NCBI GenBank assembly: GCA_963771885.1 | Contig: CAVYVF010000006.1 | Span: 1 to 26,835, forward strand | Direction of reading: 5' to 3' | Length of the DNA stretch: 26,835 bases | Source of the DNA: Candidatus Bathyarchaeota archaeon | Lineage (GTDB): Archaea > Thermoproteota > Bathyarchaeia > TCS64 | Shown here: piece by piece, positions 2,459 to 23,647 of the stretch | Layout of the letters: each line of letters starts with the position of its first letter | How positions within the stretch are numbered: the stretch's first letter is position 1 | Translations under genes and position numbers: made by a program | The notes under the pieces: generated by a model | What the model saw: only the letters and a program-made list of their open reading frames with translations | What the model was told of the DNA's origin: nothing | Databases searched by the model: none

Positions 2459-2686
2459 ATGACTGCAGACAATAAAGAGCAGAAAAAAGGCGGACCACCC
2501 TTTATCAAGTCTATCCTCAGAGAGGCGAATAGACCCCTGACGACGAAGGAGCTTCAGCAAGAAGTACATAAACGTGTGGACTTCTGCCTGTTCGACGGTG
2601 TTGTTGCTCTTAACTTGATGAGAATCAGCAGAGCAATTCAAGGGATGCGAACTGAGAGCGGCTGGATCTGGTGGATTGAGGATTAG
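2459..2686 (+). CDS. Small putative winged-helix protein
   Basis: IKSILREANRPLTTKELQQEV helix pattern with a C-terminal beta-wing-like GWIWWI; 19 nt after the previous gene. Confidence 0.55.
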   Translation: MTADNKEQKKGGPPFIKSILREANRPLTTKELQQEVHKRVDFCLFDGVVALNLMRISRAIQGMRTESGWIWWIED

Positions 2687-3202
2687 CGCGCGAGAAGTAT
2701 AATCGTTGGCGCTCCAAGGAGTAGATTTCATCGAGTTCATATTGATTCATTGATTAACTTGATTTTCTACAATCTTGTAATGCCAGTCTAAACCATGATA
2801 TGAAGCTCTTCCTCTGCGCTTATCATCTGGTTCGGAGAAATCTTTTTTTAGTTCCTTTTTAGTAAAGAGTCAATTAAATAGTTTAGTTTTTTTAGGGTCT
2901 CCTGGCGGTTTTTGCGTATCTTTAATTTACTCGTTTTTCGGTTGTGTGGAGTGGTGTAGGTTTGAAGTACGCTGACTCGCGCGGTATTATTCTCGGTTTG
3001 CTTAGCGGTGGATCTGCGATGGGTGTTAGGGAGCTGGTTAGGGCGTCGGGTGGTTTGAATTTTAAGCAGGTTGAGAACATGGTTTTCAGGTGCTGCGCGC
3101 GCGTCGCGCCTTAAAGCCAAGGTAGCAATGCGTTTAATCGCCACAGCATTAATTGTCTTAGGTTTAATAACGAAGCTTCCTACCGGGATAAATTGTTAAT
3201 AA

Positions 3203-4068
3203 ATGTCGAGAGACAAAGGATTAAACGACGGCGTAATCTCAGACACGTCTCAGGCCAAGAAGATTTCGACAGGCATGCGCCTTATATTGCTAGCAGCCAG
3301 CATACTTGTTCTATCAGCAGGACTCGATCTCACTCTCCTCACCGAGCAGACTGCCACATACTTCGCCTGGACCATCCAGTCCTCAATGACAGCCGCTTTC
3401 CTCGGCGCGGGCTATCTCGCCAGCTTCCTCCTCGAGTTTCTCGCCTATCGGGAGAAGACATGGGCCAACGCCCGCATAGCTGTTCCTTCAGTACTCATAT
3501 TCACAACTCTCACTTTGATTAGCAACCATATTACACCTCGATAAATTCCACCTCAACAGCCCACATATTTCAGCTATGGTAGCCGCTTACCTTTGGTTAG
3601 CCATTTACATCGCAGTCCCAATTGCCTTGCTGATACTCCTCATCCATCAAATCAGGATCCAAGGCTCGACACCGAAACGACAAAGCACATTATACATCCT
3701 GATGCGCCTCGTACTCGCTAGCCCAAGGAACAATAATGCTGGTTACAGGCATAATCTTATTCATATCTCCAGCGACAGCCTCCACCTTCTGGCCCTGGGC
3801 GCTCACCCCACTGACGAGCCGCGCAATTGGAGCCTGGCTCCTTGGAATCGGCGTTATAGCATTGCATATGACGTGGGAAAACGACCATCAGCGCAACAGG
3901 ATTGCATACATAAGTTATGCTTTGCTAGGGATACTTCAGGTAACATCTTTGGTACGCTATGCAGGAGAGGTCAACTGGTCCACGGCTGGTAGCTGGATTT
4001 ATCTTGCTCTTCATCATCAGCATTATCCCAACGGGATTATATCGGATGGAAAGCGTCAAGGCAGCTGA
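3203..4068 (+). CDS. Multi-pass membrane protein of unknown function, split by frameshifts (ORF pieces 3203-3544, 3576-3992, 3736-4068)
   Basis: Internally duplicated motif YFAWTIQSSMTAAFLGAGY / FWPWALTPLTSRAIGAW continues across frames. Confidence 0.7.
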
Positions 4069-4175
4069 CAAATTAAGTAAATGAGATTTATATGACTTGA
4101 TGCTTCAGGCTGGTTCAGGTTGCGCGCACATGTTAATAAAAACCTGAGATTTTTACTAAGAAAAGAGATGTGGGA

Positions 4176-4505
4176 TTAAGCTGTGAGCTTCTGGAGCCGA
4201 GTATTCACGATATTCAGATGCTCTTCCAGCTCTTCTTTAGCTTCTTTGAGGATCTCGATCTCTTCCTCGATAGATATACCCGCAATTAGCATCTTAATCT
4301 TCTCGTCGTAATCCCCACACCCGCAACCACACTCGTCGTGGTCATGGTCATTATGATCATCATCGTCATCGTTGTGGTGGTGAGGATCATGCTCCTCATG
4401 CTCATGATCATCGTGGTCATGGTGATGATGCTCATGCTCCTCATGATCATCTGGGTGGCTAGACTCGGTTACTTTCATTTCTTCGATTTTCTTTTCTTCA
4501 CTCAT
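4176..4505 (-). CDS. His/Asp/Glu-rich putative metal-binding protein with CGCGC motif and C-terminal coiled coil (DUF5320-like tail)
   Basis: ATG at 4505 preceded by GGAGG; 17 His in about 40 residues, then CGCGC; divergent from the CsoR/RcnR-family gene. Confidence 0.75.
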   Translation of the reverse strand: MSEEKKIEEMKVTESSHPDDHEEHEHHHHDHDDHEHEEHDPHHHNDDDDDHNDHDHDECGCGCGDYDEKIKMLIAGISIEEEIEILKEAKEELEEHLNIVNTRLQKLTA

Positions 4506-4619
4506 GTTTGTTTTCCTCCAAACAGCACTATGCGAGGCATCGATCTGGCTTAAGGACTCATAGACACGTATGCTCGGAGTCCAAACCAGAGACAACTGTA
4601 ATCCGATGCAATATTAATA

Positions 4620-4638
4620 TATCCCCTCCCCCCGGATA
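4620..4638. promoter_or_regulatory. Probable CsoR/RcnR-type operator
   Basis: TATCC-CCTCCCCCC-GGATA: inverted repeat flanking a C tract, between an AT-rich TATA-like box and the repressor ATG at 4646. Confidence 0.7.
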
Positions 4639-4645
4639 GGATGAT

Positions 4646-4915
4646 ATGTCCGCGATTCACAAGCAGAGAAAGAACATCCGAGACCGCCTAGTAAGGGCGG
4701 AGGGACACCTCCGGGGCATCATCAAGATGATTGACGAGGATAAGGAGTGCCCAGACATCCTATTACAAATAGCAGCAGTAAAAGCCGCCCTCGAGAAAAC
4801 GAGCGTAATTCTACTCGAGGACCACATCGAGCACTGCCTGCTCGAGGCAGTCAAGTCAGGGAATGTCGAACCCCAACTAGAGGAGCTGAAGGCAGCGCTC
4901 CAGAAACTGATCTAG
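4646..4915 (+). CDS. CsoR/RcnR-family metal-sensing transcriptional repressor
   Basis: RLVRAEGHLRGIIKMI, C35, QIAAVKAAL, H60xxxC64. Confidence 0.93.
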   Translation: MSAIHKQRKNIRDRLVRAEGHLRGIIKMIDEDKECPDILLQIAAVKAALEKTSVILLEDHIEHCLLEAVKSGNVEPQLEELKAALQKLI

Positions 4916-4923
4916 GTGATAAC

Positions 4924-6750
4924 ATGGTAGCAAACTGGAAAAAAGTGATACTCGCAATCAGCGTAACGTTGGCTGCGATTAGCTGGCTGAGCCAGACTTT
5001 CAACATCTTACCCGCTGAGACTTACACACTCATCGGCATGATAGCCGCTGGCCTCGGCGCCATATTCATCGGCCACAGCGCATTCGGAGCGTTACGCGAG
5101 GGGAACTTCGGCATCGACATCCTAGCCACCTTCGCAGTAGTCGCCTCAATCTATGTCGGAGAATACGTCGCCGCAGCAGTTGTTGTCCTGATGCTGGGCG
5201 AGGCGAGATCCTGGAGGAATACACGAGCGGCAGGGCATCCGTAGCTATCCAGAAGCTGGTCGCGGAGTCCCCAAAGACGGCGATTGGTAAAAGAGAGGGC
5301 AAGGAACTGGAGGTTCCCATCTCCGACGTCAAACTGGGCGAGATTGTCATTGTGAAACCCGGGGGTAAGATCCCGGTCGATAGGCTAGTAAAGTCTGGAA
5401 AAGCCTCAGTCAACCAGGCCTCAATCACCGGCGAGTCGATGCCGGTTGGCGAGGAGAAGGCGAGAGTGTATTCGGAGGCACAATAATCGAGCTCGGCAGC
5501 CTCGACATTGAGGTAACCGCCATCGGTGAGCAGAGCACTTATGGCAAGATTATTAAAATGGTCGAGGAGGCGGAGGAGCATAAGGCACCCATCGAACGCA
5601 CAGCGGATAGATACGCGAAGTACTTCACGCCAATCATCCTCGGCCTCGGCGTAATAGTCTACATAGTAACTGGCAGCCTCCTCAGGGTAGCTTCCCTCTG
5701 GGTCATAGCATGCCCATGCAGCCTGACCCTCGCCACGCCCATGGCTGTAGTTGCGAGCATCGGCAACTCAGCTCGTAAGGGCATACTGATACGTAACGGC
5801 GAGAGTCTGGAGAGGCTGGCCAGCATCGACGTTCTCGCCCTTGATAAAACTGGTACCATTACTACTGGGCGACCCGAGTTGTCGCCATAAAAACTTTCAA
5901 CACGGATCCGAGTGTCGTCCCGGCGTCGCCGCGACCGCGGAGAAGCGTTCGGAGCATCCTCTTGCTCAGGCTATTTCAAGAAAGCAGAAGAGGAGAAGGC
6001 TAAGGTGGAAGATCCTCAGAGCCTTGTGATGGAGCCAGGTCTCGGTGTAAGAGCCGAAACAAAGACCGGAGTCATCCTCGTTGGCAACGATAAGCTCCTT
6101 GCTAAGAACGGCGTTAAACTCACCGAGGAGGTCTTAGACTATTCAAAGTCTGTCGCTGCTAATCGGACACTCATCTATGTAGCCAGGGGTGGACGTCTGA
6201 TCGGAGCCTTAGAGGTGGCGGATACTGTCCGGGGCGACCTCGCTGATACCTTCAAGGAAGCTAAGAGGTACGTGAAGAAGACAATCATGTTGACCGGAGA
6301 CAACGAGTCTGTGGCGAAGACTATTGGTAAGCAGGTCGGCGTCGATGAGGTGTTCTTCGGCTTCTTCCGAGCAGAAGGTTGAGAAGATCAAGGAGCTTAA
6401 GGCGCAGGGATACAAGGTCGCTATGATTGGCGACGGGTGAACGATGCCCCAGCTCTGGCAACGAGTGACGTTGGGATAGCGATGGGTCTTAGAGGCACCG
6501 ATGTTGCTATTGAGACCGCGGGAATCGTATTGGCTACGGATGATTTGAAGAGGATACCTAAGCTCCTGAGGATAGGCAGCTCGACGATGGCGGTCATCAA
6601 GCAGAACCTTTCTTCGCGATGGCCGTGAACGTATTGGGATTGGGCTTGAGCGTCACGGGCATCATTCCACCTCTTGTCGCCTCGATCATTCACGAGAGTA
6701 ATGCTATGATAGTGATGCTAAACTCACTACGGCTACTCAGGGTTGATTAA
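4924..6750 (+). CDS. Heavy-metal-translocating P1B-type ATPase, multiply frameshifted
   Basis: TGES, CPC (IACPCSLTLATP), DKTGT, SEHPLA, MLTGDN, GDG/NDAPALA and C-terminal HESNAMIVMLNSLRLL, spread over several frames. Confidence 0.92.
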
Positions 6751-6888
6751 CTGGAACTTCAGAGAGTGCTCATGGAATTGGTAATTTGTACCCTATAGTC
6801 GCGCGCGCCTTTAATATTTTTCCAGTGCAACCTTTTTCCCCATTAGTTCCGTTCAGGTTCCGGTTGAGGCTCACGTTGGTCTAGAGCG

Positions 6889-7803
6889 CTAACGCATAAT
6901 TATATTATTTTCTAGTAGGAACCTTATAATTTCATCACGCATCGCGTCCATGCGCCCCACCAAGAAGTGGCCACCGCTTTCAAAGGGAACAAACTTGGCA
7001 TTAGGCACATGTTGAGCAGTATATTGACCATATTCGAAGTTAACTAAGCCATCATCCTTGCCATGGAAGACGATTGTTGGAGTCATTATTGTTTCCAAAG
7101 GCAGATTTACTTCATCTTGACCACGAACGAAATCATTCATGACCCCCGCTTGACGCGCACTAATAGGCTGCATGGCTCGAAGCATGCCATCAACGTACTG
7201 CTCGTCTTCGTTCGTCATGTTAGCCTGAACCTCCAGGGAAACCCCCATAAACCTAAGAAATTGAGGCCTAAAACTTGTAGCGAAAGCCCAGTAGCCCAAG
7301 TCTGAGCTCATAACAACCTGTTGCATCATCAGGTTTTCAGAGCTGAGGGGTGGGGTGTTGTGACTGACTGCCATGGACATTACCAGTGCTGAGCATCTAT
7401 CAGGGTGGCGAAGGGCAAACTGTAGTGCTGCTGGTCCACCGAATGAAAAGCCCATGACGATGACCTTCGAAACATTTAAAGCATCAAGGAGGTCGGCGAA
7501 GGCATCAGCTTGCGCGGCAAAGGAAGCATCCTGCGGCATCGGTGTGCGTAGATATCCGAAGCGTGAGGGAACAATTAAGCGGAAGCTCTCATTGCCAAGC
7601 ATCTGCCTGACACTTTCAACCTGAGTGTATCCCAATGCGCCGCCATGTGAAACCAGAACAGGGTAACCTTCGCCTACATCAGCATACTCGATTAAGCCAT
7701 GAGGTGTTTCGATTAGTTTGCTGCCAGACAGGGTTTGTTGTTTGACACTGTTAATGTATAATTGGTATCTGAGTTCAATCGGCATCAAAGCAAGAACTGC
7801 CAA
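6889..7803 (-). CDS. Alpha/beta-fold hydrolase, membrane-anchored; possibly fused to 7893-8243
   Basis: HGG oxyanion motif, GFSFGG nucleophile elbow, HGKDD acid, GGH catalytic His. Confidence 0.9.
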   Translation of the reverse strand: MAVLALMPIELRYQLYINSVKQQTLSGSKLIETPHGLIEYADVGEGYPVLVSHGGALGYTQVESVRQMLGNESFRLIVPSRFGYLRTPMPQDASFAAQADAFADLLDALNVSKVIVMGFSFGGPAALQFALRHPDRCSALVMSMAVSHNTPPLSSENLMMQQVVMSSDLGYWAFATSFRPQFLRFMGVSLEVQANMTNEDEQYVDGMLRAMQPISARQAGVMNDFVRGQDEVNLPLETIMTPTIVFHGKDDGLVNFEYGQYTAQHVPNAKFVPFESGGHFLVGRMDAMRDEIIRFLLENNIIMR

Positions 7804-7892
7804 TGCTACAACAGCCGTTAGAGCGACTACCGCACGGCTTTTTCTTGATAGTATCCTTAATCGACTTCTGATTGGGTGGATAAGGCGGTTAT

Positions 7893-8243
7893 TTAGCTTT
7901 CCAGGTTAACGAAAGGGCTGCGCCAAATATGCCTAAAGCAAAGCCAGCTAGGAAACCACCTCCCGCATATGATACTAATCGATGCAAGGATCCCGATAGC
8001 TACTCCTAAGACCCTATTATGTGGTGGTTGTCGAAGCAGCAAAGCAGCGCATAGTGCCATTATCAGCCCTGGGCCAAAGTGGAAGAACAAGTCATAGGCG
8101 TCGAACCTCATGGCAAACTGTGACTGGTTGTAAGCCCAAAAAATGCCCTCAGCAATCACCAATACCGCTGCTGAAGCAGTTAGAATAAAAGCTAAAACGG
8201 GAATATTTTCTTTATCCAAAGAAGAAAATGTTTTAGCATTCAC
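7893..8243 (-). CDS. Small membrane domain (DUF6114-like C-terminal pattern), frameshifted
   Basis: Hydrophobic segments; after a one-base shift reads GGFLAGFALGIFGAALSLTWK; GTG start overlaps the stop of the upstream gene. Confidence 0.55.
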   Translation of the reverse strand: MNAKTFSSLDKENIPVLAFILTASAAVLVIAEGIFWAYNQSQFAMRFDAYDLFFHFGPGLIMALCAALLLRQPPHNRVLGVAIGILASISIICGRWFPSWLCFRHIWRSPFVNLES

Positions 8244-8497
8244 TGCTTTTTTCCCTCCATTCTTCCTGCGCGGAGAAACATCTCAAGTTCTTCTTTACTT
8301 ATGTCAAGTCTTAGAGTCCCCTTAATGCCTCTGACCTCGAGGGTTACATCCTCTAGTAAATAGACTCCCTCAAGCTCACCTAGTTCACCTTGAATAAGAA
8401 CCGGCTCAGCCGACTTGTCAGAGAGGCTGATGTGGTTTAGAGAGTATCTCGACTTCATTTCTATTGAGAATGTGTGCTCCTCGACTCTTCGCTCCAT
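8240..8497 (-). CDS. Small beta-strand-rich hypothetical protein, copy B
   Basis: HTFSIEMKS...VLIQGELGE...GTLRLD, paralogue of 871-1137; ATG at 8497 chosen by alignment with copy A. Confidence 0.8.
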   Translation of the reverse strand: MERRVEEHTFSIEMKSRYSLNHISLSDKSAEPVLIQGELGELEGVYLLEDVTLEVRGIKGTLRLDISKEELEMFLRAGRMEGKKQ

Positions 8498-8605: not shown

Positions 8606-9405
8606 ATGTGGTTGAAGGACTCTCTAGACCTACTCTTCGAGCTGTCAAATGAGGATCGACTCCATATCCTAACAACTCTCCAGTCGAAGTCCTTGAAGCT
8701 AACCGAGCTCTCCACCGAGGTTACACTCCCAAATCAGGAGGTTTCGAGGCAGCTTGCAAGACTCTCCGCCCTTGACCTCTGCTTTCGTGATGGCAAGGGA
8801 CTATACAACCTGACTCCTTATGCTGAGCAGGTCCTCAAACTGATCCCAGGATTCGAGTTTCTGTCGAAACATAGGTCTTACTTCAGGACACACACCGCTG
8901 GTGGCCTCCCCCTGAGTTTCAGCTTCGGATAGGTGAGCTTGTTTCGTGTGTTCCGATCAGTGATGTTGTAACTAGCCTGGCTGATATGCAGCAGATGATT
9001 GGTGAAGCTAAGGAGAAAATCTGGAGCATCGTAGAGCAACCTAACATAACCAACGCAAGGTTGACAGAAGACGCCGTTCGTAGGGGCGTTGAGAACAAGA
9101 TCATTCTGCCAGCCAACATTTTACCGTCAGAGCTGTACATTCATTATTTACAGGGGATGGGCGTGGATCATCCTCTTAGGTCGGCGAAGTCGGAGAGGAA
9201 GTTTCTCGACAGTTTACCGATCTCTCTGGTGATGTCTGAGCGAGAAGCTCCGTGGGTCCTCTTCCCGATGCTCGATGGAAAGCTGGATTACTCTGGCTTC
9301 AAAGCTAAGGGTGGGGAGGCTCTAAAGTGGTGTGGGGACGTCTTCTTGCACTATTGGAGGCTTGCCTCAACAGAATCGCCTGAGAGTCTCCAGGAATTTG
9401 TTTGA
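8606..9405 (+). CDS. ArsR-like wHTH / DUF1724-like regulator, copy 2, with one frameshift near 8910-8920
   Basis: DLLFELSNEDRLHIL, QEVSRQLARL, LDGKLDY, LKWCGDVFLHYW; break at a C5 run, with FQLRIGEL in the other frame. Confidence 0.85.
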
Positions 9406-9460
9406 CTCATTCAATTTTTCCCATTAAATGTTTGAGGGACTAAAGCGTTTGAAGAAGCGT

Positions 9461-10018: not shown

Positions 10019-10021
10019 GGT

Positions 10022-10608: not shown

Positions 10609-11154
10609 ATGTTCTTGGCAGGTTCAAGTAGAAGCGTTAATGGCGAGCCTATCGGCTTATTGGCTGAGGTTTGTGTTGGACTAGCATTTGGCGCTCCATC
10701 GTTTCTGACCTCGGCTCGGGTTGTGATGACTAGTGTTTTGTTCACGACTCTCGTCGAGGGTGGTTGGGGCTTCCCCGTCTTTGCTTTAGCGTGTCTCACC
10801 GACATTTTCGATGGTGCGCTCGCTAGATGGCTGAACGCTGAGAGTAAGTTCGGCGGTCTGTTCGACGCCTCCGCCGACTTCCTGCTGGTCTTCTCGACTT
10901 CGGTATTCTTCGTTTGGAAGGGCATCGTGTCCATCTGGTTTGTAGTCTTGATAGTTGCCGCTTTCGCGGGATACGTCTTCGGTAAAGACGCACCTGGTCA
11001 TGATCCTTTGGGGAAGCATATTGGTACTGTGATTTTTGTGGCTCTTGGGACTGTGCTGGTGTTCCCTGTGTTGTTCGTGGCTTCTTTGGCGACGTTTGTA
11101 TCTTCATGTTATATTGTGGCGTCGATGATTCTTCGCGCGCGCGAAGAGATTTGA
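10609..11154 (+). CDS. CDP-alcohol phosphatidyltransferase family protein
   Basis: Signature DIFDGALAR-x7-GGLFDASAD. Confidence 0.88.
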   Translation: MFLAGSSRSVNGEPIGLLAEVCVGLAFGAPSFLTSARVVMTSVLFTTLVEGGWGFPVFALACLTDIFDGALARWLNAESKFGGLFDASADFLLVFSTSVFFVWKGIVSIWFVVLIVAAFAGYVFGKDAPGHDPLGKHIGTVIFVALGTVLVFPVLFVASLATFVSSCYIVASMILRAREEI

Positions 11155-11204: not shown

Positions 11205-11372
11205 GGGGAGTTCGTCTTGTCTTCAGTGAGTTTGCGGTGGTTGTTCGAGGCGTCTTAAGAGAGGATTTTCTAAACAGCCTAGGGTGTATCCTATAGAAAA
11301 TTCATATTAGTTGTTAGTAATAATCGCCCTTAAATCATATATATTATTGATACATATCACAAACCGGTATAA

Positions 11373-11498
11373 ATGAGCAAAACAAGCACAGCCTTCGCCC
11401 TGATCGGCGCATGCATAACCATATTCCTAATGATTACCTTCTGGAACACCCTGAGCCAGTTCATGAACGAGGGGCTGCTAAAGGCATTCAGCGGATAG
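11373..11498 (+). CDS. 41-aa small membrane protein, below the ORF-track cutoff
   Basis: MSKTSTAFALIGACITIFLMITFWNTLSQFMNEGLLKAFSG; AT-rich TATA-like region upstream; coding-like composition. Confidence 0.55.
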   Translation: MSKTSTAFALIGACITIFLMITFWNTLSQFMNEGLLKAFSG

Positions 11499-11613
11499 AA
11501 CCGCACGCGCGCGCATTACTAATAAGATAACTTTCTCGATGTTAGCCCTTCACAACGCCTATTTCCCAGTTGAATTTCCCAATCGCGTTCGCACGCGCGA
11601 TAATATTTCATGT

Positions 11614-12162
11614 CTATAGCTTGACGTGCCACATTTTTCTGCTTCTTCGTGCGTGTTCATAGTCGGGGTACTCCAAGGTCCTCTCATGCCGACCGGTAAG
11701 CTCCTCAACATTGATCACAACACAGTGCGCAACACTGAACGTTCGGTAGCTCTTGGTGAACTGCAACCCACCCTCAGACGGGGGCTTACGGTAGAACTCC
11801 TTATACTTTGAGTGAAGCAAACTGAAGAAGTGGAGTTTATTCTCCTCATCGTTCTCGATATGTGCTTTTCCGAAAGCGAGGACACTATCATAGTCCAGGT
11901 GGCAGAGGGCATCATAGTGGTAGCTCACCTCCCCCATGAACTTGTCGACCTCAAAGCAACAGCTAGGGTTCTTCTTCAATACGTCCACCTTCTTTCCGTT
12001 CAAAGCACAGTGAAAGATGATTTTCTTATCCTCATATGCGAAGTTGACAGGGATCACATATGGTTTGTTTTCATCGCTGAGTGCTAGTCGCCCAACCTCG
12101 GCTCTTCTCAGCAGTTCCTCCATCTCCGCCAATCCGTCTTCAGTTGTTTCATCTACCTTCAT
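11614..12162 (-). CDS. Pyridoxamine 5'-phosphate oxidase-like flavin-binding protein (NimA/FMN split-barrel family)
   Basis: VGRLAL, PYVIPVNFAY, FHCALNGKK, NPSCCFEVD, YDSVLAFG; start 12162 (ORF track gives 12207). Confidence 0.88.
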   Translation of the reverse strand: MKVDETTEDGLAEMEELLRRAEVGRLALSDENKPYVIPVNFAYEDKKIIFHCALNGKKVDVLKKNPSCCFEVDKFMGEVSYHYDALCHLDYDSVLAFGKAHIENDEENKLHFFSLLHSKYKEFYRKPPSEGGLQFTKSYRTFSVAHCVVINVEELTGRHERTLEYPDYEHARRSRKMWHVKL

Positions 12163-12475
12163 ATTACCAACTCTTGCATGTCCACTGGTGTTTGACGTGT
12201 TAAGCATTTATCGACATATTAACTCCCCAAGGTTTATGGCGGCACACCTATGGGTCACTTGAAAATGCATGAACGCACTCGAAGTCATCTATTGTGACCT
12301 CCCTGAGAAATCTTCTGTAGAATATGAGTACGCCAACTAGGCGCGCGCCTATACATTACGCGCGAGCACTTCTTTAATCAAAATGTATCCATTTTTTTAG
12401 AAGTTTTATATACTGCATCCTCAATCAGGTGTGAACTTTAATATTATTTAAAAACACGCCTATTGAGAGAACAAT

Positions 12476-14020
12476 ATGACAAAAGAGACGAAGCCCACAG
12501 GAGCAAATAATAGACTAATACTGGCACTCATCATAATCATAGCCATGGCAGGCGCCTCATACTACGCATACCAGACACTAAACCCCCCAATCAAGCCAAC
12601 AAACTGGCCAACCCAAACCTGGACCACCGCCACAGCGGAGGCAAGCGGCTTCGACTCACATAAACTAGCCGAAGCCATCACCTCAATGAAAGCTACCCTC
12701 AACATACACAGCCTCACCATCACAGGCAGCGACGGCGGACTCTTCCTCGACGCCTACTTCTACCCCTACGACGGCTCCACCTACCACGACTATGCCTCCG
12801 TCACAAAAAGCGTGACGACGACCCTCATCGGAATAGCGGCCGACCAGGGAAAACTCGACTTGGATAAACCGATCCTATTCTACTTCCCCGACGCGACGGT
12901 GGCAAACCGCGACGCCCGCAAGGAGAAGGTCACCGTGCGCCAGCTAGCAGGAATGACCTCCGGATTCACATGCGTCGACTACCCCACTGAGGCGACGCTC
13001 GAAGAGATGATGCTGACCCCAAACTGGGTACAGTATGCACTAGATCGCCCAATGGCAGCCGAGCCGGGCACACGCTTCGCCTACGACAGCCTCGGAATGC
13101 ACCTGCTCTCCGCCATCCTCGAGAAAGCCACCGGGGTGACGGAGCTAGAGTACGCTCAACAGGTTCTGTTCACCCCTCTGGGAATAACCGAGGTTTGCTG
13201 GCCATCCGACCCGCAGGGCCACACTAAGGGTTGGGGGGACCTCTGCCTTCACCCACGCGACGCCGCCAAAGTTGGCCTACTCTTTAGCCATGGAGGCGAA
13301 TGGGGTGGCAAACAAGTGGTGTCACAGCGGTGGGTATCCGAGGCGACTAAGAAGCAGGTCTCGACGAATCGCGGCTCAGACTACGGTTATGGTTGGTGGG
13401 TGTCGTCATCCAGTGAAGCTATTCCCTACTTTAGCGCTGAGGGCAGGGGTGGTCAATATATCAGGGTCTACCCGACGCTGAGCATTGTCATTTCGGCGAC
13501 TGGGGGCGGCGTCAGCATGGGCGACATAGGTCCTAAGCTAGCGGAGGCGATAACAGATAATGGAAAGGCTCTGCCAGCCAACCTGATTGGGGCTGAGAGG
13601 CTAAGAGGCGCAGTGGTTGAGGTCGGTGTTAAACCTCAACCGGCGTCTGTAGCTGAGTTACCCGGTTTGGCGGGCGTCGTGTCAGGTAAAACCTACGTCT
13701 TCGACTCGAATATTCTGGGGTTGAAATCTATGGTACTTGAGTTTGACGCTGGCTCTGAGGCGTTCTTTAAACTGGAAAAAGTGGGGGAACTGGAGCCACG
13801 CTTCGGGGTCATTGGCCTCGACGGGGTCTACAGGATGAGCAGTAGCGGTCAGCCTGCGGCTGCTAAGGGAAGCTGGTCGAGTCCCAACGTCTTTGCCTTG
13901 GATTATAACGAGGGTCCAGGTCTAAACTATCTTCAAATAAGATTCATCTTTGAGGATGACGTGGTTCGGTTTAATATTCAGGGATTCGGTGAGATTATCG
14001 GAAGAATCTCGGATATATAA
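12476..14020 (+). CDS. Secreted or anchored serine hydrolase, beta-lactamase/penicillin-binding-protein-like fold
   Basis: N-terminal TM; SxxK (ASVTKS), PGTRFAYDS, YGYGWW, GRGGQYI; extra C-terminal domain. Confidence 0.9.
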   Translation: MTKETKPTGANNRLILALIIIIAMAGASYYAYQTLNPPIKPTNWPTQTWTTATAEASGFDSHKLAEAITSMKATLNIHSLTITGSDGGLFLDAYFYPYDGSTYHDYASVTKSVTTTLIGIAADQGKLDLDKPILFYFPDATVANRDARKEKVTVRQLAGMTSGFTCVDYPTEATLEEMMLTPNWVQYALDRPMAAEPGTRFAYDSLGMHLLSAILEKATGVTELEYAQQVLFTPLGITEVCWPSDPQGHTKGWGDLCLHPRDAAKVGLLFSHGGEWGGKQVVSQRWVSEATKKQVSTNRGSDYGYGWWVSSSSEAIPYFSAEGRGGQYIRVYPTLSIVISATGGGVSMGDIGPKLAEAITDNGKALPANLIGAERLRGAVVEVGVKPQPASVAELPGLAGVVSGKTYVFDSNILGLKSMVLEFDAGSEAFFKLEKVGELEPRFGVIGLDGVYRMSSSGQPAAAKGSWSSPNVFALDYNEGPGLNYLQIRFIFEDDVVRFNIQGFGEIIGRISDI

Positions 14021-14113
14021 CACAGCACACGTTATTCGCGCTCGTAACATATGGTATAAATTACCATAGTGATCTCCCCACGTGCAAGCGAATTTGCGCG
14101 CGTTTTCCTGATC

Positions 14114-14449: not shown

Positions 14450-14581
14450 TGGTCTTAATTATTAAAATTTGTATTAAAAATACCTGTACGATTAATGGAC
14501 CTAAACATTAGCTATTTTTTTCATGTGATTGGAGAGTATCAATTGTCGCACGCGTAATATCGACCCCTATACACATACTTA

Positions 14582-14842
14582 CTACAATATCCGAAAATAG
14601 ATTAGTAAAGCAAGTTGAACAAGGAGAAAAAGGGGAACAACAAAAAACTTCAGCTTGCGAATCTTATGCCTAAAAAACATCATGCCCAACAAGGCGCCGA
14701 AGGGACCCAAAGCCGCCTGCACCAACAAGCTAGACTCAGATACTCTTCCCTTGCCCCTCACAGCCCGAAACTTATCAAAACCATAGAGACAAAGAGAGAT
14801 ATAATTAACTAAAATTATCGCCGCTAACAGTGCCTGATTCAC
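14582..14842 (-). CDS. DUF1294-family membrane protein
   Basis: LYGFDKFRA, RVSESSL, GALLGMMFFRHKIRKLKF. Confidence 0.88.
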   Translation of the reverse strand: MNQALLAAIILVNYISLCLYGFDKFRAVRGKGRVSESSLLVQAALGPFGALLGMMFFRHKIRKLKFFVVPLFLLVQLALLIYFRIL

Positions 14843-15255
14843 GTCAGCTCCCCACCTACTTAATGCGAATTAGATAAAAGCACAGTGTAAGGGCGGGGCC
14901 TACTCGGCCCCATACCCAAACGAGTGGCTTCAAGATTGGCAGAGATCCGAAGCAAATCAAATAGTGTCTTTCCACTCTATAAGATAAATGGATGCTGAAA
15001 CCATAACAACCATATGAAAAGAAATTCATAATCCCAGACTAGGAAGAATAACAGAAATACAAAGAACAGAAAAAGGTTAACCAACACAATCCTATACACT
15101 GAAAATTGAATAGAACGAATCAAATGAACAAAGAAGAAACGAGTATAACACCCCTAAACCGAGGAAAAACGGGGGTATATCGATAAAGCCAACCATCGGA
15201 CACTCTAACCCGTCGAAGGTCCATACTCCCATCGAGCCGTCGACACCAGCATCAG

Positions 15256-15274
15256 AGGGGTCGAAGAGACCCCT
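15256..15274. terminator. 7-bp stem hairpin just downstream of the DUF4332 gene
   Basis: AGGGGTC-gaaga-GACCCCT, 17 nt past the stop, preceded by T runs on the minus strand. Confidence 0.4.
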
Positions 15275-15291
15275 TAAAATCACTAAAAAAA

Positions 15292-15696
15292 TTAGTACTC
15301 GACTACCCTTCCGAGTTTCTTCGCCTGCTCAACCCAATCCTTCACCGCGCTCATCGGAGGAGGACGGTTAACGAGGTTCTTCTTCTCGTTAACCTCAAGG
15401 ATCTTGGCATGTAAGTTCTCCGGCACCCTCTTCGCCAACTCCGCAATGGTGTCCACACCTGCCTCCTCAAGCAGATCCGAGTACTCTTGACCGACTCCCT
15501 TAATCCTGTAAAGGTCAGCGAGGTTAACCCACTCCAAGATAAGCTTCTTGTCTATACCCGTCTTGGCAGCGAGCTCCTCCCTCGCCTTTGCAGCCGCACC
15601 CGCCTTCAGCAGGTCGTCCGTCGTCTTGATACCAATTTCACCCAGCTTCTTCGCATACGTCGGGCCGATTCCCTCAATATCTAAAATCTTCGCCAA
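15292..15696 (-). CDS. DUF4332-family helix-hairpin-helix protein
   Basis: DIEGIGPTYAKKL, LEWVNLADLYRIKGVGQEYSDLLEEAGVDT. Confidence 0.9.
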   Translation of the reverse strand: MAKILDIEGIGPTYAKKLGEIGIKTTDDLLKAGAAAKAREELAAKTGIDKKLILEWVNLADLYRIKGVGQEYSDLLEEAGVDTIAELAKRVPENLHAKILEVNEKKNLVNRPPPMSAVKDWVEQAKKLGRVVEY

Positions 15697-15763: not shown

Positions 15764-16171
15764 CTATTTGAGTTTCGTCTTCGACAGCTGCTTGCTCAGC
15801 CAGAAGACAACCAGCGCGATTATGATGAAGTCGATAAGGGCGCCAGCGAAGTCTCCTAGGAGGAACTTTATGGGCCCTACCTGGAATACAGCGGTTCTCC
15901 ACTCCCCACCCGGGATGATGACCGCGATTATGGGCATCAGCAGATCGCTTACAAGTGCGGAGATGAGTCTGCCCGCGGCGCCTCCTATGATGAAGGCGAT
16001 GGCAAGGCCGACTACGCCAAATTTGTTCAGAAAGTCCATGAACTCCTCGCTGAACGACTTCTTCGCCGGCGGAGGTGTCGGCGGGGCTGGTTTAGGGGTC
16101 AGTAGTTCCTTGATTTGTGTTAAAGTCTCAAGCATCTTCTCCTGGTTAGCTTTATCAGACATTTTACTCAT
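15764..16171 (-). CDS. mscL: Large-conductance mechanosensitive channel with atypical termini
   Basis: EFMDFLNKFGVVGLAIAFIIGGA, LVSDLLMPII, GDFAGALIDFIIIALVVF; start among 16186, 16171 and 16162. Confidence 0.9.
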   Translation of the reverse strand: MSKMSDKANQEKMLETLTQIKELLTPKPAPPTPPPAKKSFSEEFMDFLNKFGVVGLAIAFIIGGAAGRLISALVSDLLMPIIAVIIPGGEWRTAVFQVGPIKFLLGDFAGALIDFIIIALVVFWLSKQLSKTKLK

Positions 16172-16238
16172 TATAGAGAAACGCATCTGATATTAAACCA
16201 CTACAATAAGAATTCTTCATACTCCCCACAACTACAAA

Positions 16239-17834: not shown

Positions 17835-17978
17835 CAGAGAACCAATAATTGGCTCAGCAACCTCATATTTAATAAAACTGCACGCGCGCGGCGTGGACGC
17901 GCGAATCACAATATTAAAAACTTAACCTCATAATAAACAAATATATACCTTCATAACGATTCGATCAATCTGACCCTT

Positions 17979-18461
17979 ATGATCGGATCTGAACTACTAT
18001 ATTCGCTATCCCTATGGTTCATTCGAGCCCTAATCTCAAGTATAATCTGCTTAATCATCGGATATCTCGGAATTAGAGGCATCTCGATCATCACAACCCA
18101 AGTAAACGAGTTCAAAACCATTAAAGGCCATCCACTAGCCACGAGCCTATTCTTAGGCGGCTTCTTCATCTACGCAGGTCTAGTCATCTATGGATCTATG
18201 GTCAACCCCTTCTTCCTATCCCAAAACATCTCAATCGGCTCTTACTTTAACGTAACAAGGCTCGCCGTCGTCATTCTAAGCTTCCTGGTGAGCTTCATAT
18301 TCGGAGGAGTCCTCCACTACATATTTAGCAAACTCCACCTCTTCAACGTGGACTTGGACGACATAAACAAAGATCCAACCGCGGTAGGCATTTTCCTCTT
18401 CTGCTACCAAATATTCCTTGGATTAATTATCTTCTCAAGCCTAAATGTACCACTCGGCTAG
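17979..18461 (+). CDS. Membrane protein with internal repeat (DUF350-like)
   Basis: Four TM segments; repeated units IKGHPLATSLFLGG / INKDPTAVGIFLFC. Confidence 0.65.
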   Translation: MIGSELLYSLSLWFIRALISSIICLIIGYLGIRGISIITTQVNEFKTIKGHPLATSLFLGGFFIYAGLVIYGSMVNPFFLSQNISIGSYFNVTRLAVVILSFLVSFIFGGVLHYIFSKLHLFNVDLDDINKDPTAVGIFLFCYQIFLGLIIFSSLNVPLG

Positions 18462-18471
18462 ATTGATAAAA

Positions 18472-19302
18472 ATGTCACCCAAAAAAGCTCTGATAAGTAT
18501 ACTACTCATCGTAGCTATGATTGCCCCTACCGTTCAGGGAATCCCTAGTGGTGGTGGTTTACCACCGAGCTTTACATACAATTCAGGAGAATGGTATGAC
18601 GCTTGGGGAATCACACGCACATATGCCGAAGGAAGCCACGGCTACCTCCCACTACTACTCGCAGAGACAATTGGTGATAACAGTGAACAAGCCTATAGTA
18701 TTGGTCAAAGGATGCAAGATACCTACTCCGATGAGAATACGCTGGCGACTAAGATTCTGAATTATGTCCAGACCTGGGTTGAATACGGGTATGATAGCGA
18801 TAATGTGTTCATGAATGGTGTAGCGCAAGAGGAGTGGGCTTGGAACGCTGATGAATTAGCGCACAGCTTCGACACGTCAACGGGCCAGGTGGCGGTGGGG
18901 GACTGCGAAGACATGTCTTTCCTCAGCGCAACAATCTATGAAGGCGCAGGGTTCGAAACAGCTATCATCGACGCACCCGGACACGTAGCCTTACTCATCT
19001 GGTTACCCGATTTCCAGAACGCTAACCATTACTGGGATCTAGATGATGGCCGAGGAGCTGGCTGGATCTGGGTCGAGGCAACCGGCTCATCGAACCCTCT
19101 GGGCTGGACGCCCCCGGAATTCTCAGATGGTGAATGGACCGCATATACGCATGTTGACGATACCTTCTATTCTCAGCAACCCTATCAGGGTTCTACAGAT
19201 GGAACGGGAACCGATGGTTCAGGGTCTACTGGATTCGATTTGAACCTCGTGATACTCATCATTGTAATACTATTCATATTGTTCACAAAGTCCAGAAGGT
19301 AG
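18472..19302 (+). CDS. Secreted transglutaminase-like (Cys-His-acid triad) protein with C-terminal membrane anchor
   Basis: Signal peptide; GDCEDMS, PGHVAL, WIWVEAT; G/S/T linker, TM helix, KSRR tail. Confidence 0.8.
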   Translation: MSPKKALISILLIVAMIAPTVQGIPSGGGLPPSFTYNSGEWYDAWGITRTYAEGSHGYLPLLLAETIGDNSEQAYSIGQRMQDTYSDENTLATKILNYVQTWVEYGYDSDNVFMNGVAQEEWAWNADELAHSFDTSTGQVAVGDCEDMSFLSATIYEGAGFETAIIDAPGHVALLIWLPDFQNANHYWDLDDGRGAGWIWVEATGSSNPLGWTPPEFSDGEWTAYTHVDDTFYSQQPYQGSTDGTGTDGSGSTGFDLNLVILIIVILFILFTKSRR

Positions 19303-19374
19303 CCACCAATATGTGCACATAGATGGAACTCTTATAGAGGTAGATTTGAAAGGATCAACATCAGTCTTTGAAAC

Positions 19375-20554
19375 ATGGACACCGTAGCCGCGGAGTCTGA
19401 ATCTGAGAGCCTCCAAAATCAATAAGGATCTAGTCTTCGGAAATACCAAGTTCTCACTGAAAATCCTCAAAGAGTTGCAGACAGAAGACAAAGACACAAA
19501 CATATTCATATCCCCTATCAGCATCTCGATGGCTCTAGCCATGCTCTATAACGGAGCTGAAAGTCACACCAAAGAAGCGATTGCTGAAGCTTTACAGCTA
19601 AAGGGAATACATCCCGCTGATATTAATGAGGGGTTTCAAGACCTCATGGATTCACTGGACAACCTGGGCACCCATGTCAGCTTGAGTATAGCAAACTCTA
19701 TCTGGGTCAGACAAACATTCGAATCTAATATTAAAGACGGATTCAAGAGCGACCTCGCCACATATTTCAGAAGCGAGATTCTTCCCCGTCGATTTAATGA
19801 CTCCGCTACCATAAACGAGATCAATGCTTGGGTTAAAACAAAGACGGGCGACAAGATAGAAAAAATAATTGAATACCTTTCTCGAGATACAATGATGTTC
19901 ATCATCAACGCGATATATTTCAAGGGAGAGTGGCTCCAAAAATTCGAAGAAACTAAGACTCGACAGAGGAATTTCCATCTCGAAAACGGAAAAACCATAC
20001 AGAAAAAAATGATGAACACAGTCAAAAAGTTCCATTATTGTCATGAAGACAGTATACAGGCTGCACGATTGCCGTATGGTCGAGACAAGATAGCGATGTA
20101 TATACTATTACCCGATGAAGGCGCGAATCTAAATTCTCTCGTAAACGACATCGACCCGGATAAACTAGAAGCCATTTTCTTAAAGATGAAAAAAACTGAA
20201 CTAGAGTTACAATTACCGAAGTTAAAGCTAGAATACGGAAAGAAGCAGTTGAATGACGCCCTAATCCGACTAGGAATGGGCGTAGCCTTCGATAGAGAAT
20301 CCGCCAATTTCAAGGCAATTGCCACACTCGACTCCGAGAACCTATTCGTATCTTTCGTAGACCATAAGGCCGTTGTTGAAGTTAACGAGATGGGAACAGA
20401 AGCAGCGGCAGTTACGAATATAGGAATCAAGCTATCGAGTATGTCGATCACAACCCGGAGATTTATCGTGAATAAGCCCTATTTGTTTCTGATACGTGAT
20501 GACCGTTCTGGTTTAATTTTGTTTATAGGAAAGATCGTAGAACCACTCCAATAA
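19375..20554 (+). CDS. Serpin (serine protease inhibitor); N-terminus probably frameshifted
   Basis: NIFISPISISMAL, NAIYFKGEW, EVNEMGTEAAAVT hinge, FIVNKPYLFLIRD...ILFIGKI; frame open from 19388, out-of-frame ATG at 19375. Confidence 0.93.
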
Positions 20555-20734
20555 CTATTCACACACTCCTAGATGGGAAGCTTTAACTCAATAATATCTC
20601 AAACGAGCATAATACACTGGCATCGAGTTGCATGGTAGTAATTAGATGGTTTAAGACAATTTTTTGTTTGCGCGCACGAAATTAGAAAGTTCTTTATGTC
20701 CTGTTAAATATATGGCTCTAATGGTGAAAACAAA

Positions 20735-21133
20735 GTGTCGGATATCCTTGGGAAACTTAAGTCAGGTGCTTCGAAAGCAGCCTTTGACGCGGACAAGTTG
20801 ATGAAAGTAAGGAAGATCGAAGGGGACATTACTCAGCTTAAAAAACAGATAGATAACTTCCAAGAGAGGCTTGGTGAAATCACTTACCTTAGCTATGTTA
20901 ACAAGGAGCCGCAGAGCCAAGAAGCTATAGACTATTGTGAAAAGTTAACCGCTCTCGAGCAACAAGTAGTTGCTAAGCAGGAAGAGATAAAAACTATCCA
21001 GGCCGAAATTTACGGACAGGCGGCACCAGCCAGCGCTCCGGTCGTCACGAATTTCCAAAAATGTCCCAACTGTGGAAAGATGAACGCCGCTAATACAAAG
21101 TTCTGCGCCGAATGCGGTACAAAACTAGGTTAA
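20735..21133 (+). CDS. Coiled-coil protein with C-terminal zinc ribbon
   Basis: CPNCG...FCAECGTKL; GGTGA RBS upstream. Confidence 0.85.
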   Translation: MSDILGKLKSGASKAAFDADKLMKVRKIEGDITQLKKQIDNFQERLGEITYLSYVNKEPQSQEAIDYCEKLTALEQQVVAKQEEIKTIQAEIYGQAAPASAPVVTNFQKCPNCGKMNAANTKFCAECGTKLG

Positions 21134-21333
21134 ATGGATACAATTGAGCGCGCATCCCCGTTTTCTGATCCTCATAGCTCATGAAGAAGGAAAGAAAGAC
21201 TGGTTAAGCCTCTACCTGATAAAAACCTCGTAGAGAAGCCAGACCCGCGAGCGGCCACGGATGAGCGGCAGACGCGCTCGCATAATATAAAAGCAGTTAT
21301 TTAGACTCCAATACACAAGTCCATAGACCTCCA

Positions 21334-23277
21334 ATGAGGGCAAAGACTCAATGCGCCCGAGATTGCCCCGATTCCTGCTACATGGATGCAGAGGTGATAA
21401 AAGGTAAACTATTCTCAGTCACCGGAGGAAGAGACAACCCCATAACAAACGGAATGGTCTGCCCCCGAGGAGCAGGAGACGTAACACGAGTCTACAGTGA
21501 AAAACGCGTTCTATACCCACGATTAAGAACAGGTAAAAAACCGAACAATGAATATCTTAAGGTAACATGGAACCAAGCCTACGACAAAATTACCTCAACC
21601 TTGAAGGATTCACTAGAAAAATATGGTCCCGATAAGATTTTACTATTGGACTATGCAGGCAACGCAGCTCTAATAACTTCTCAGTACTCGATGCGCCTCT
21701 GGGCGGCAATGGGAGCAACCCACACCGATCACTCAATATGCAGCTTATCCGGGCACGAGGCCCTCAAGCTACACTACGGACTCAGCTACGGGGTTACTGC
21801 TGAAAAACTATCGAGTATGAGACTCGTTATACTCTGGGGACACAATGCGAAAGTTAGCAGCATGCATCAGTGGGCCCAAATAAATAAGGCACGGGAAAAT
21901 GGGGCAAAACTTGTTGTTATTGACCCCCGATGCAGTGAATCAGCGGCTCAGGCAGATTTATGGATTAAGCCCAAACCCGGGTCCGATGTAACGCTCGCTT
22001 ATGGCATCGCCAATTGTATGATAAAAAAAGGCTACGTTGACCTTGACTTCATAAAACAGTATACAATCGGCTACGATAATTATCGAAATGAAGCTCTAAA
22101 CTGGTCAAAAAGCAAAGTTGAATCCATCACAGGTGTTGAATGGAGCGAGGTCGAGACCCTAGCGACTCTACTCGGAGAAAATAAGCCAAGCGTCATCTTC
22201 ATGGGGATAGGTCTTCAGAAGAGCAGCAATGGTGCTGAGGCGATCAGAGGCATCTCACTTCTGCCAAACCTAGTCGGACAACATCGAGGATTCTACTATA
22301 CAAACAGCCGAGCCCGATTCATCGACTATGATTATCTCAACAACCCTAATCATAATTTTATTTGGAAAACCGTTAGTCAAACAAACTTAGCCTCACAGAT
22401 TCAAGACGGAGATTTCAAATTCATCTACGTAACTGGCACCAATCCCCTCGTTACGTTACCCAACCAAAAGTCTCTACGTGAGGGACTATGCAGAAGCGAC
22501 GTCTATTTGGTAGTTCACGATACGCATATGACCGAGACTTGTGATTACGCTGACGCCGTTCTCCCTGCGCCGACCTTCCTAGAAAAGGAGGACGTCTCAA
22601 TATCCGATTGTCACCCTTACACCCGTTTCGGACAGCGGTGTATCGAGCCCTTGGGTGAGAGCCGCACCGAAGTATCCGTCACGAGAGAAATAGCCCTCCG
22701 CGTTGGAATAGGTGGCCCATGGCTCATGGAGGAGCCGAGGGAAGCAATAAGGAAAACTATGAAGGACTCATTCGAAAATGGAACTGTTGAAGAGTTTCTC
22801 CAAGGCAAAGATTTGAAGATGAGGGAGAGAAACCGAGATGAATATCAGACTCCAAGTGGAAAAGTCGAGTTCACATCAACGACCGCCATCGACCCGACCA
22901 CTCCACTTCCTATACAGCTCCCACTCCTTGACGAGGATTCCTTAACCCTGCTAAATAGCTCCCTTCCGCACTGGACTCACAGTCAATTCAGAGATGTTTA
23001 CGGGGAAATACCTTCAATTGTTTGGGTGAACAAACTTGACGCAGATGCGAGAGGAATTAGCGACGGTGATGCCGTTATTTTAAGTAATTCTGGTGGTGAG
23101 ATAGAGGTTAAAGCACTGGTTGGTGCCAAGGTCAGGCGAGGGGTGCTATGGTCTCCTCGACCAATAATCGATGCCATAGGTAGACCCCAAAATACGTTAA
23201 CTTTAGGAAAACCTCAGCATATAGGTGGGGGTCCTAGTTTTAACTCGACAAGAGTTATCTTAAATAAGAAAAAATGA
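21334..23277 (+). CDS. Molybdopterin-dependent oxidoreductase (DMSO reductase superfamily) with N-terminal 4Fe-4S motif
   Basis: CARDCPDSC...CPRG, VIDPR, PGSD, ADAVLPAPTFLE, TPSGKVEF; intact 647 aa. Confidence 0.92.
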   Translation: MRAKTQCARDCPDSCYMDAEVIKGKLFSVTGGRDNPITNGMVCPRGAGDVTRVYSEKRVLYPRLRTGKKPNNEYLKVTWNQAYDKITSTLKDSLEKYGPDKILLLDYAGNAALITSQYSMRLWAAMGATHTDHSICSLSGHEALKLHYGLSYGVTAEKLSSMRLVILWGHNAKVSSMHQWAQINKARENGAKLVVIDPRCSESAAQADLWIKPKPGSDVTLAYGIANCMIKKGYVDLDFIKQYTIGYDNYRNEALNWSKSKVESITGVEWSEVETLATLLGENKPSVIFMGIGLQKSSNGAEAIRGISLLPNLVGQHRGFYYTNSRARFIDYDYLNNPNHNFIWKTVSQTNLASQIQDGDFKFIYVTGTNPLVTLPNQKSLREGLCRSDVYLVVHDTHMTETCDYADAVLPAPTFLEKEDVSISDCHPYTRFGQRCIEPLGESRTEVSVTREIALRVGIGGPWLMEEPREAIRKTMKDSFENGTVEEFLQGKDLKMRERNRDEYQTPSGKVEFTSTTAIDPTTPLPIQLPLLDEDSLTLLNSSLPHWTHSQFRDVYGEIPSIVWVNKLDADARGISDGDAVILSNSGGEIEVKALVGAKVRRGVLWSPRPIIDAIGRPQNTLTLGKPQHIGGGPSFNSTRVILNKKK

Positions 23278-23647
23278 TTACATCGCCCACGCGACAAACA
23301 CTCAATCTCTAACCCTAATCCCCCAAAGCTGATCCTAATGCCATCAATGTAAACTGGGTTTCTCGGCACCGAAGTCACGTTATCAAACGAGTATATCACA
23401 GACCCGAGCACCCTAATGTTCTCGGACGGCATACCACCGACCTACACATACATCTTCAGGCGCGCGTGCAGCCTAGTAAGAGGCGATTTCCAATATTTTT
23501 ACAATTTAACACCTAGTTTGTGTACAATTGTAATCATACTTGATTAATCATTAAAAACCAGAAGAAAATCCGCCGAACGGACGAGGCGACGGACATGTTC
23601 CCAAAAACCAGCAGAGAAACAAAAGCGCCAACGGGAGGATACCTACG

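Follow-up and report, generated by a model that had tools for sequence, protein, structure and literature searches.

Alternating CG runs mark the joints of rearranged gene blocks in a Bathyarchaeia genome

Introduction

Short tracts in which C and G strictly alternate punctuate a 26,835-nucleotide stretch of a Candidatus Bathyarchaeota genome (the window; the genome is called G000 below). What are these runs, and why do they lie between genes? The initial annotation saw them as boundaries between gene modules and proposed a cis signal, such as an insulator, terminator, supercoiling sink or methylation target. In a search from which subscription literature was largely excluded, we found no paper on GCGCGC in Bathyarchaeia and none on alternating non-templated filler at archaeal deletion junctions; the main text of a survey of Z-DNA (10.64898/2025.12.30.697008) makes no reference to Bathyarchaeia. 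According to the introduction of PMC12019639, it is an open question how DNA ends are joined in most archaea in the absence of Ku.

Results

Composition, length and position of the runs

The window holds exactly 16 pure CG-alternating runs of at least 6 nt, so the list first drawn up was correct and complete. Under a hand-curated gene mask, 15 of them lie in non-coding DNA (4,630 bp, 40.5% GC; first-order Markov expectation 0.7) and one in coding DNA (22,205 bp; 6.4 expected; binomial p 5e-11). That one, 10 nt at 11134-11143, lies among the final codons of a CDP-alcohol phosphatidyltransferase gene (10609-11154), as expected from the claim that runs lie outside genes or at their very ends. The further claim that coding bodies are free of runs holds for this window but not genome-wide, since 717 runs of at least 6 nt fall inside genes, where synonymous shuffling gives 875. 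Contigs assembled from public sequencing runs of other samples span the runs at 11594 and 14096, and at 11592 they reveal a variant that differs in length by 2 nt. The runs are therefore not an assembly artefact. Among the raw reads of a public run, X6, 4 partial reads were recovered.

The enrichment extends genome-wide, as the initial annotation had anticipated: GCGCGC (5.0x) and CGCGCG (4.3x) are the two most over-represented non-coding hexamers, whereas CCGCGG (1.1x) and GGGCCC (0.35x) are not comparably enriched. On the 19 small contigs, the density of runs of 8 nt or more is 43x higher in non-coding than in coding DNA; on the 4 large ones it is 8x higher. Their length is capped at 10-11 nt. 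The non-coding DNA of G000 has 87 runs of 8 nt, 48 of 9 nt, 23 of 10 nt and none of 11-14 nt, and the single-contig genome G021 has no run of 12 nt or more in 800 kb. In G021, 35 of 42 8-mers begin with G. The low-GC, Ku-positive genomes G001 and G010 showed no evident (AT)n counterpart in 45 kb and 8 kb.

The flanks carry no motif. Flanking palindromes and target duplications were at chance level in G000 (251 runs), G021 (56) and G039 (16), and the palindromes were no longer than in shuffled flank pairs, contrary to the impression that some runs extend into longer ones. No flanking consensus or flank word was significant; TTCAGG, thought at first to precede some runs, was seen twice in 510 flanks, where 2.6 occurrences are expected. 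Runs occur in gaps of every orientation (tandem, convergent and divergent), with convergent gaps somewhat richer than tandem ones (9/41 versus 17/153, for gaps of 100-200 bp on large contigs), and no fixed distance between run and gene was found. Run-to-start distances fell below 40 nt in 5 of 131 cases and run-to-stop distances in 44 of 147, which agrees with the reported absence of runs from compact promoters. The simplest reading of the scarcity near starts is that joints which would break promoters are selected against.

Runs lie at the joints of lost, gained or moved blocks

Comparison with strain-variant contigs shows that the runs mark joints of blocks that were lost, gained or moved between strains. 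Of 68 homology-block ends, 16 had a run of at least 6 nt no more than 3 nt away (null 2.7, maximum 9 in 300 draws); the remaining 52 had no such run at that distance. A run or a decayed run was present at five of eight large-indel joints. At C10:22657-22666, a 10-nt (GC)5 seals a 2,078-bp deletion through an open reading frame that is intact in C20, and this (GC)5 is found in neither parent end. It is the one joint for which both parents and the polarity are known. At most other joints, the partner is unseen and may have brought the run with it.

For the 27 runs that have a close homologue (415 of 442 have none, including 6 of the 16 in the window), our own tally gave 9 absent from the homologue, 5 shared at a joint and 13 collinear. 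Beside the C10 joint, a visible homologue without the run was found in eight further G000 cases and in two from the Ku-negative G021, one of these at 99% identity. In most testable joints a parent lacks the run, and runs are gained or lost between copies that are 85-99% identical. Of the metagenome loci that carry one gene of the window, most were short and distant.

Runs also sit at cuts inside genes; a protein-level test for truncation gave 5 of 144 against 1.4 expected, a weak result that equals the null maximum. Older runs are reused as crossover points too: one deletion, in C3, ends within a pre-existing run. One-gene modules move at runs together with their upstream DNA (blocks 12359-14024 and 20673-21145). 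The runs are thus module boundaries in a stronger sense than was originally meant, as the modules differ between strains at the runs. A terminator or insulator role is unsupported, because runs occur in all gap types, at no fixed distance from genes and inside cut genes, and are missing from 9 of 27 homologues.

Arrangement of the window

In the left part of the window, the run at 2686-2692 (7 nt) has no close homologue for comparison. It is followed by runs at 2978-2983 (6 nt), 3095-3103 (9 nt), 4122-4127 (6 nt) and, in a convergent gap, 6800-6808 (9 nt). A 35-nt match in X1, one of the public sequencing runs, starts at 4128, too short to serve as evidence. The 9-nt run at 11506-11514 lies within 21 nt (11507-11527) that are missing from the collinear copy on C5; this difference may be a gain here or a loss in C5. 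The 6-nt run at 11594-11599 is common to C5, and 2-4 nt length variants adjoin it in C5, X1 and X4.

Block 11279-12348 ends on the right in the 8-nt run 12341-12348. In C5, position 12348 is joined straight to the block after 14548, and the same joint recurs in X3, a public sequencing run of another study. The right side of that joint is the degenerate run at 14547-14554, noticed early on and real, which coincides with the start of block 14548-15361. Between these points, the 6-nt run 12359-12364 starts block 12359-14024, which contains a beta-lactamase-fold gene; in C2 and C3 this block follows another neighbour, again with a run at its start. The 7-nt run 14096-14102, in a convergent gap, is present in contigs from the public runs X1 and X4.

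Further right, an 8-nt run (17883-17890) stands 7 nt left of a 6-nt run (17898-17903) at the start of block A (17895-20677), which is common to C5, where the run has decayed. The 6-nt run 20670-20675 is the joint between blocks A and B (20673-21145), and another of 6 nt (21148-21153) lies 3 nt beyond the end of block B. Block C (21273-23362), which holds a molybdopterin oxidoreductase gene, starts at a degenerate run (21273-21281) that the initial annotation had not listed. In C5, block A is followed by block C and block B is elsewhere, each again at a run. Finally, a minus-strand gene remnant at 23361-23459 corresponds to residues 232-264 of a 303-aa protein intact on C2. Its cut end is 1 nt from the 7-nt run 23460-23466, and the intact C2 homologue has no run here.

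Distribution across the class and candidate enzymes

The trait is bimodal, being strong in 26 of 91 scorable genomes, from six families, and absent from 58. It does not follow non-homologous end joining (NHEJ) genes, and Ku/LigD was rejected as its source: Ku was found in 7 of 26 positive genomes and in 20 of the 58 negatives (p 0.62). Nine of the 26 positives carry a LigD polymerase, and 17, G021 among them, show neither Ku nor LigD.

PolX, PolY, reverse transcriptase, gyrase, C5 methylase and tyrosine recombinase are each absent from at least one positive genome. PolX was dismissed as the writer of the runs, being present in negatives and not found in the positive G039, and so was PolY, which was not found in G000. 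Addition by a reverse transcriptase or telomerase-like enzyme was likewise set aside, as a search confined to the family PF00078 found it in none of five genomes, four of them positive. Gyrase A was found in none of five genomes and the runs stop at 10-11 nt, which speaks indirectly against a supercoiling sink or Z-DNA element. The C5 methyltransferase family PF00145 was not found in the positives G000, G039 and G081, and was detected only in a negative genome; as far as C5 methylation goes, the suggestion of a methylation target is not supported. Tyrosine recombinase PF00589 was not found in G000 (92% complete), G021 or G081. The number of ligases does not sort five genomes, and a scan of G000 proteins for motifs of nucleotidyltransferases, ligases and recombinases brought up no candidate that stood out.

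A PolB2-like gene occurs in 19 of 26 positives and 26 of 58 negatives (p 0.02, a value that ignores kinship and a threshold that mixes two PolB groups). Neither needed nor enough for the trait, it is a weak lead. The primase subunit gene priS was found in 28 of 30 genomes, and genes for both PriS and PriL are present in G000. No trait-linked PriS residue was seen by eye in a tree and alignment of 28 sequences, and PriX was found in none of 151 genomes.

Discussion

We consider it likely that the runs are filler left by Ku-independent rejoining at the joints of deleted, inserted or moved blocks. In the scheme we propose, a polymerase would add G and C to both 3' ends, and the tailed ends would pair on 2-4 G:C pairs. 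The self-complementarity of (GC)n would let every tailed end pair with every other in this way. Each end would then serve as template for the other, and the two would presumably slip in steps of two nucleotides until a stable overlap of about 8-10 bp is reached, after which the gap would be filled and ligated. Existing runs would be reused as short crossover points, so that modules shuffle at old seams, and joints falling in genes or promoters would be purged, leaving the survivors between modules.

The replicative primase PriSL may be regarded as the leading, still tentative, candidate for the enzyme, with an unknown, patchily distributed factor as the next. The accessible portions of PMC3333859 and PMC12019639 describe PriSL as annealing ends on 2-4 G:C pairs, as having terminal transferase activity, as leaving C insertions at breaks in Saccharolobus next to G/C, and as more active in template switching in its PriX-less form. 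End joining by Saccharolobus PriSL, as those texts present it, is Ku-independent and archaeal like the process proposed here, and G000 has PriS and PriL; but about 85% of its scars are indels of 1-2 nt, unlike the stereotyped 8-10 nt alternating filler, length cap and kilobase shuffling seen here. The near-universal occurrence of PriS (28/30) counts against PriSL for a patchy trait. Somewhat more doubtful is a bolder version, in which a dedicated, patchily inherited Bathyarchaeia enzyme would write a self-complementary (GC)4-5 linker on any DNA end, a universal adaptor for splicing, deleting and reordering accessory genes without recombinase, Ku or homology, the linkers later serving as shuffling hubs.

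Ku/LigD NHEJ of bacteria and Methanocella also joins unrelated ends and can add bases, and G000 has its full cluster (LigD polymerase, Ku and ligase-phosphoesterase), but the signature does not follow those genes across the class. Fillers of eukaryotic end joining (TdT, Pol mu, Pol theta) are N-nucleotides or templated, and vary or copy nearby DNA. They resemble the runs in being new bases from neither parent, and differ from the fixed, self-complementary dinucleotide repeat found here, with PolX missing in a positive genome and present in negatives.

An alternative, which we think improbable, is that the runs pre-exist as fragile or sticky spots, through Z-DNA-type breakage or G:C-rich microhomology, and are enriched by reuse and by survival between genes with no new synthesis. 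The five runs shared at joints, the different neighbours that blocks A, B and C meet at runs and the C3 deletion terminating inside an existing run are in keeping with it. According to the accessible text of PMC3240628, illegitimate recombination joints usually have 3-10 bp of microhomology, and the homology-facilitated form yields deletions and insertions of about 1 kb; this fits the reuse of old runs, but such recombination uses existing microhomology and writes no filler. The C10 run is found in neither parent, nine homologues lack the run, the other G/C hexamers are not comparably enriched and gyrase A was not found in five of five genomes; pre-existing hotspots would also leave the origin of the runs and their bimodal spread unexplained.

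Integron cassettes (attC/IntI) are one-gene accessory modules, and the modules here likewise change order and neighbours between strains, whole and with upstream DNA. An integron-like site-specific system with the run as crossover core is nevertheless quite unlikely. No integrase was found: tyrosine recombinase was not detected in three positive genomes, with serine and IS110-type enzymes covered by at most one motif scan. The runs lack a flanking consensus and an inverted repeat, their spacing is not fixed, attC-like arms were not encountered, flank complementarity is at chance, genes lie in both orientations, and joints fall inside genes. Still less plausible are footprints or target sites of a transposon with CG-repeat ends, as target-site duplication is not above chance, the flanks share no element end and the C10 joint is a plain deletion plus filler. 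A cis signal (terminator, insulator, chromatin-protein or methylation site) would suit the strong non-coding enrichment, the closeness to stops rather than starts and the somewhat richer convergent gaps, but is the least credible reading, given runs gained and lost between near-identical copies, runs at cuts inside genes with no fixed position, absence of the trait from 58 of 91 scorable class members and no C5 methylase in three positives. Some runs may have acquired secondary use as a cis signal.

If the runs are filler from Ku-independent rejoining, then their fixed sequence and capped length make a scar that is recognisable directly in genome sequence. This scar sorts a large uncultured class into members that use it and members that do not, so that comparative genomics should be able to find the enzyme, which could then be tested in vitro. 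Should that enzyme make any two ends compatible, it would be useful in cloning. The scar also marks where genes came and went.

Results

The initial annotation had described 16 pure alternating C/G tracts of at least 6 nt (CG runs) in the window, and all 16 were recovered where it had placed them. Of these, 15 fall beyond the curated coding mask (0.7 expected) and one is inside it (6.4 expected; gene calls come from our own caller and are approximate). The proposed genome-wide enrichment against a Markov background was confirmed: 68 runs of at least 8 nt occur in the 1,496 spacers between genes that measure 20-400 bp, where Markov models of first, second and third order predict 3, 10 and 16. 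Inside genes, runs of at least 8 nt are mildly depleted (38 versus 76 in synonymous shuffles). Two accompanying features, a TTCAGG before the runs and longer palindromes around them, did not hold up genome-wide.

The window makes up all of contig C6. The assembly to which it belongs (G000; 2.46 Mb in 23 contigs, 92% complete, 6.7% contaminated) comprises four large contigs of 55-58% GC and 19 small ones of 44-55% GC. The small contigs often duplicate stretches of one another or of large contigs, with 85-98% identity; in our reading they are strains or closely related species that were assembled together, and this makes an internal comparison possible. Within the large contigs, low-GC and high-GC regions have similar run densities per non-coding base (4.6 versus 3.4 per 10 kb), so that islands seem richer in runs mainly because they hold more non-coding DNA. 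A T run of about 450 nt at C1:86304-86749, probably an assembly artefact, was excluded from break-end counts. Contig C18, possibly chimeric, is folded back on itself near position 5240 and carries two PolX fragments in opposite orientations.

The window carries accessory genes, several of them frameshifted: a hydrolase, a beta-lactamase fold, an MscL channel (15764-16186), a racemase, a serpin (19292-20554, apparently frameshifted near its start), a molybdopterin oxidoreductase and others, as an archaeal accessory region. Positions 4176-6750 encode a metal-sensing repressor, a small His/Asp-rich protein and a frameshifted third gene, which from its motifs we take to be heavy-metal P-type ATPase-like. 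Frameshifts are common in the window (3203-4068, 4924-6750, 8606-9405 and 23595-26200) and in core genes of the assembly, including both PolB genes; they are likely to be long-read errors.

Runs stand at both ends of blocks common to the window and other contigs. In contig C5, position 12348 is fused straight to the block after 14548, and 2.2 kb is missing relative to the window. Block B (20673-21145) follows block A (17895-20677) in the window. In C5, block A is joined to block C (21273-23362) and block B is found at another place; each of these joints has a run or a decayed run. The block 12359-14024 opens at a run in the window and in C2/C3, behind different neighbours. Over the whole genome, 16 of the 68 block ends have a run of 6 nt or longer no more than 3 nt away, where control positions of the same coding state, drawn from within 1 kb, predict 2.7; the other 52 have none at that distance. 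The 12348 joint also occurs in a contig from public dataset X3, of a different study, and a 2-nt variant at 11592 was seen in datasets X1 and X4, so that the pattern is not an assembly fault.

A homologue of at least 85% identity that reaches the run edge, as the test required, was available for 27 of the 442 runs that are 7 nt or longer. Thirteen of the 27 were collinear, five were common to both copies at a joint, and nine had no run in the homologue. The clearest new run is a 10-nt (GC)5 at C10:22657-22666, supplied by neither end in C20: C10 has lost 2,078 bp and retains only the tail of an ORF that is intact through the break in C20. A gene remnant in the window is cut off 1 nt from the run at 23460; C2 has the gene intact, with no run. 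In the single-contig genome G021, where 5 of 122 runs were testable, two homologues, one of them 99% identical, lacked the run, and at one joint the run was shared. As runs are missing in some homologues and shared in others, they appear to be both written at joints and reused. Both parents and the polarity are known for one case only, and a protein-level test gave a weak signal (5 of 144 versus 1.4 expected).

Non-coding runs in G000 number 172, 101, 87, 48 and 23 at lengths of 6, 7, 8, 9 and 10 nt, and none at 11-14 nt. In G021 (800 kb), G comes first in 35 of 42 8-mers and no run reaches 12 nt. Phase varies by lineage: GCGCGCGC exceeds CGCGCGCG two- to fourfold in several genomes of families f16 and f11, and CGCGCGCG leads in G007, G023 and G071, where GCGCGCGC is rarer. 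In G112, G086, G080 and G163, GCGCGCGC is 2.5- to 3.8-fold ahead. Flanks show a mild excess of A directly after the run (44-50%) and nothing else. Transitions predominate in one-mismatch copies (248 versus 153), which fits ageing of runs. Runs shun the 40 nt ahead of starts, not the 40 nt past stops.

To score the spread of the trait across the class, we divided the number of 8-mers in each whole genome by its number of 6-mers, a proxy checked on sequence in three positives (G000, G021 and G039, the last in regions picked for having runs) and in small samples of three negatives (G018, G001 and G010). The set comprised 151 genomes with a completeness of 90% or more, from which 60 were left out for having fewer than 200 six-mers. 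The ratio was below 0.10 in 58 of the 91 scored, at least 0.15 in 26 and between these values in 7. The 26 positives span six families; family f23 was negative in 23 of 23.

G000 possesses a full Ku/LigD end-joining cluster at C23:379234-382788 (locus L166:7235-10789), with a LigD polymerase, Ku, and a ligase fused to a phosphoesterase. Seven of 26 positives have Ku, versus 20 of 58 negatives, and a LigD polymerase was detected in 9 of the 26 positives. Neither was found in 17 of the 26, including G021, so that Ku/LigD is rejected as a required source of runs. Related genomes are not independent of each other and absence from an assembly is no proof, but gaps can hardly account for 17 such genomes spread over several families. 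Class-wide, the search detected Ku in 38 of the 151 genomes, although a 2025 paper places it in very few archaea (PMC12019639).

PolX, PolY, reverse transcriptase, tyrosine recombinase, gyrase and C5 methylase were rejected as sources, each not being found in at least one positive genome. Searches of the whole genomes G000, G021 and G081 found no tyrosine recombinase and hence no XerA. A PolB2-like gene shows a weak link to the trait, uncorrected for kinship. G039 encodes a third family-B polymerase (L247:973-2775; about 600 aa, motifs intact-looking) that is shorter than its other two and gave no match to the PolB2-like query at E 1e-40. At G000:C23:532639-535246, a nuclease gene, presumably FEN1-like, stands directly before the gene of a third ATP-dependent DNA ligase (525 aa); ligases of similar size occur in G021 and in the negative G156.

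Discussion

CG runs lie at joints and can be new sequence there; their length has a cap, and they do not require Ku/LigD. We propose that G and C would be added onto both 3' ends, and that the tailed ends would pair through self-complementarity and extend on each other, slipping in steps of two until the overlap is held by 8-10 G:C pairs; fill-in and ligation would follow. As only an alternating repeat can self-pair in several registers and G:C holds best, such a process would explain both the sequence and the cap.

Two papers describe activities of this kind for Saccharolobus PriSL, namely terminal transfer, annealing on 2-4 G:C pairs and template switching, together with an in vivo role in break repair with C insertions (PMC3333859, PMC12019639). 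PriSL thus has the activities that the mechanism would need; however, most of the scars reported for it are 1-2 nt long, and an enzyme that is universal does not explain a patchy trait. For these reasons we regard PriSL, our leading candidate, as less likely than not to be the writer of the runs. No trait-linked residue was seen when PriS was inspected by eye, and PriX was not found. A dedicated linker-writing enzyme seems to us possible, though less likely than not. Our literature search, in sources available in part, found no published account of this CG-run signature. We class the runs as a variant of end-joining filler.
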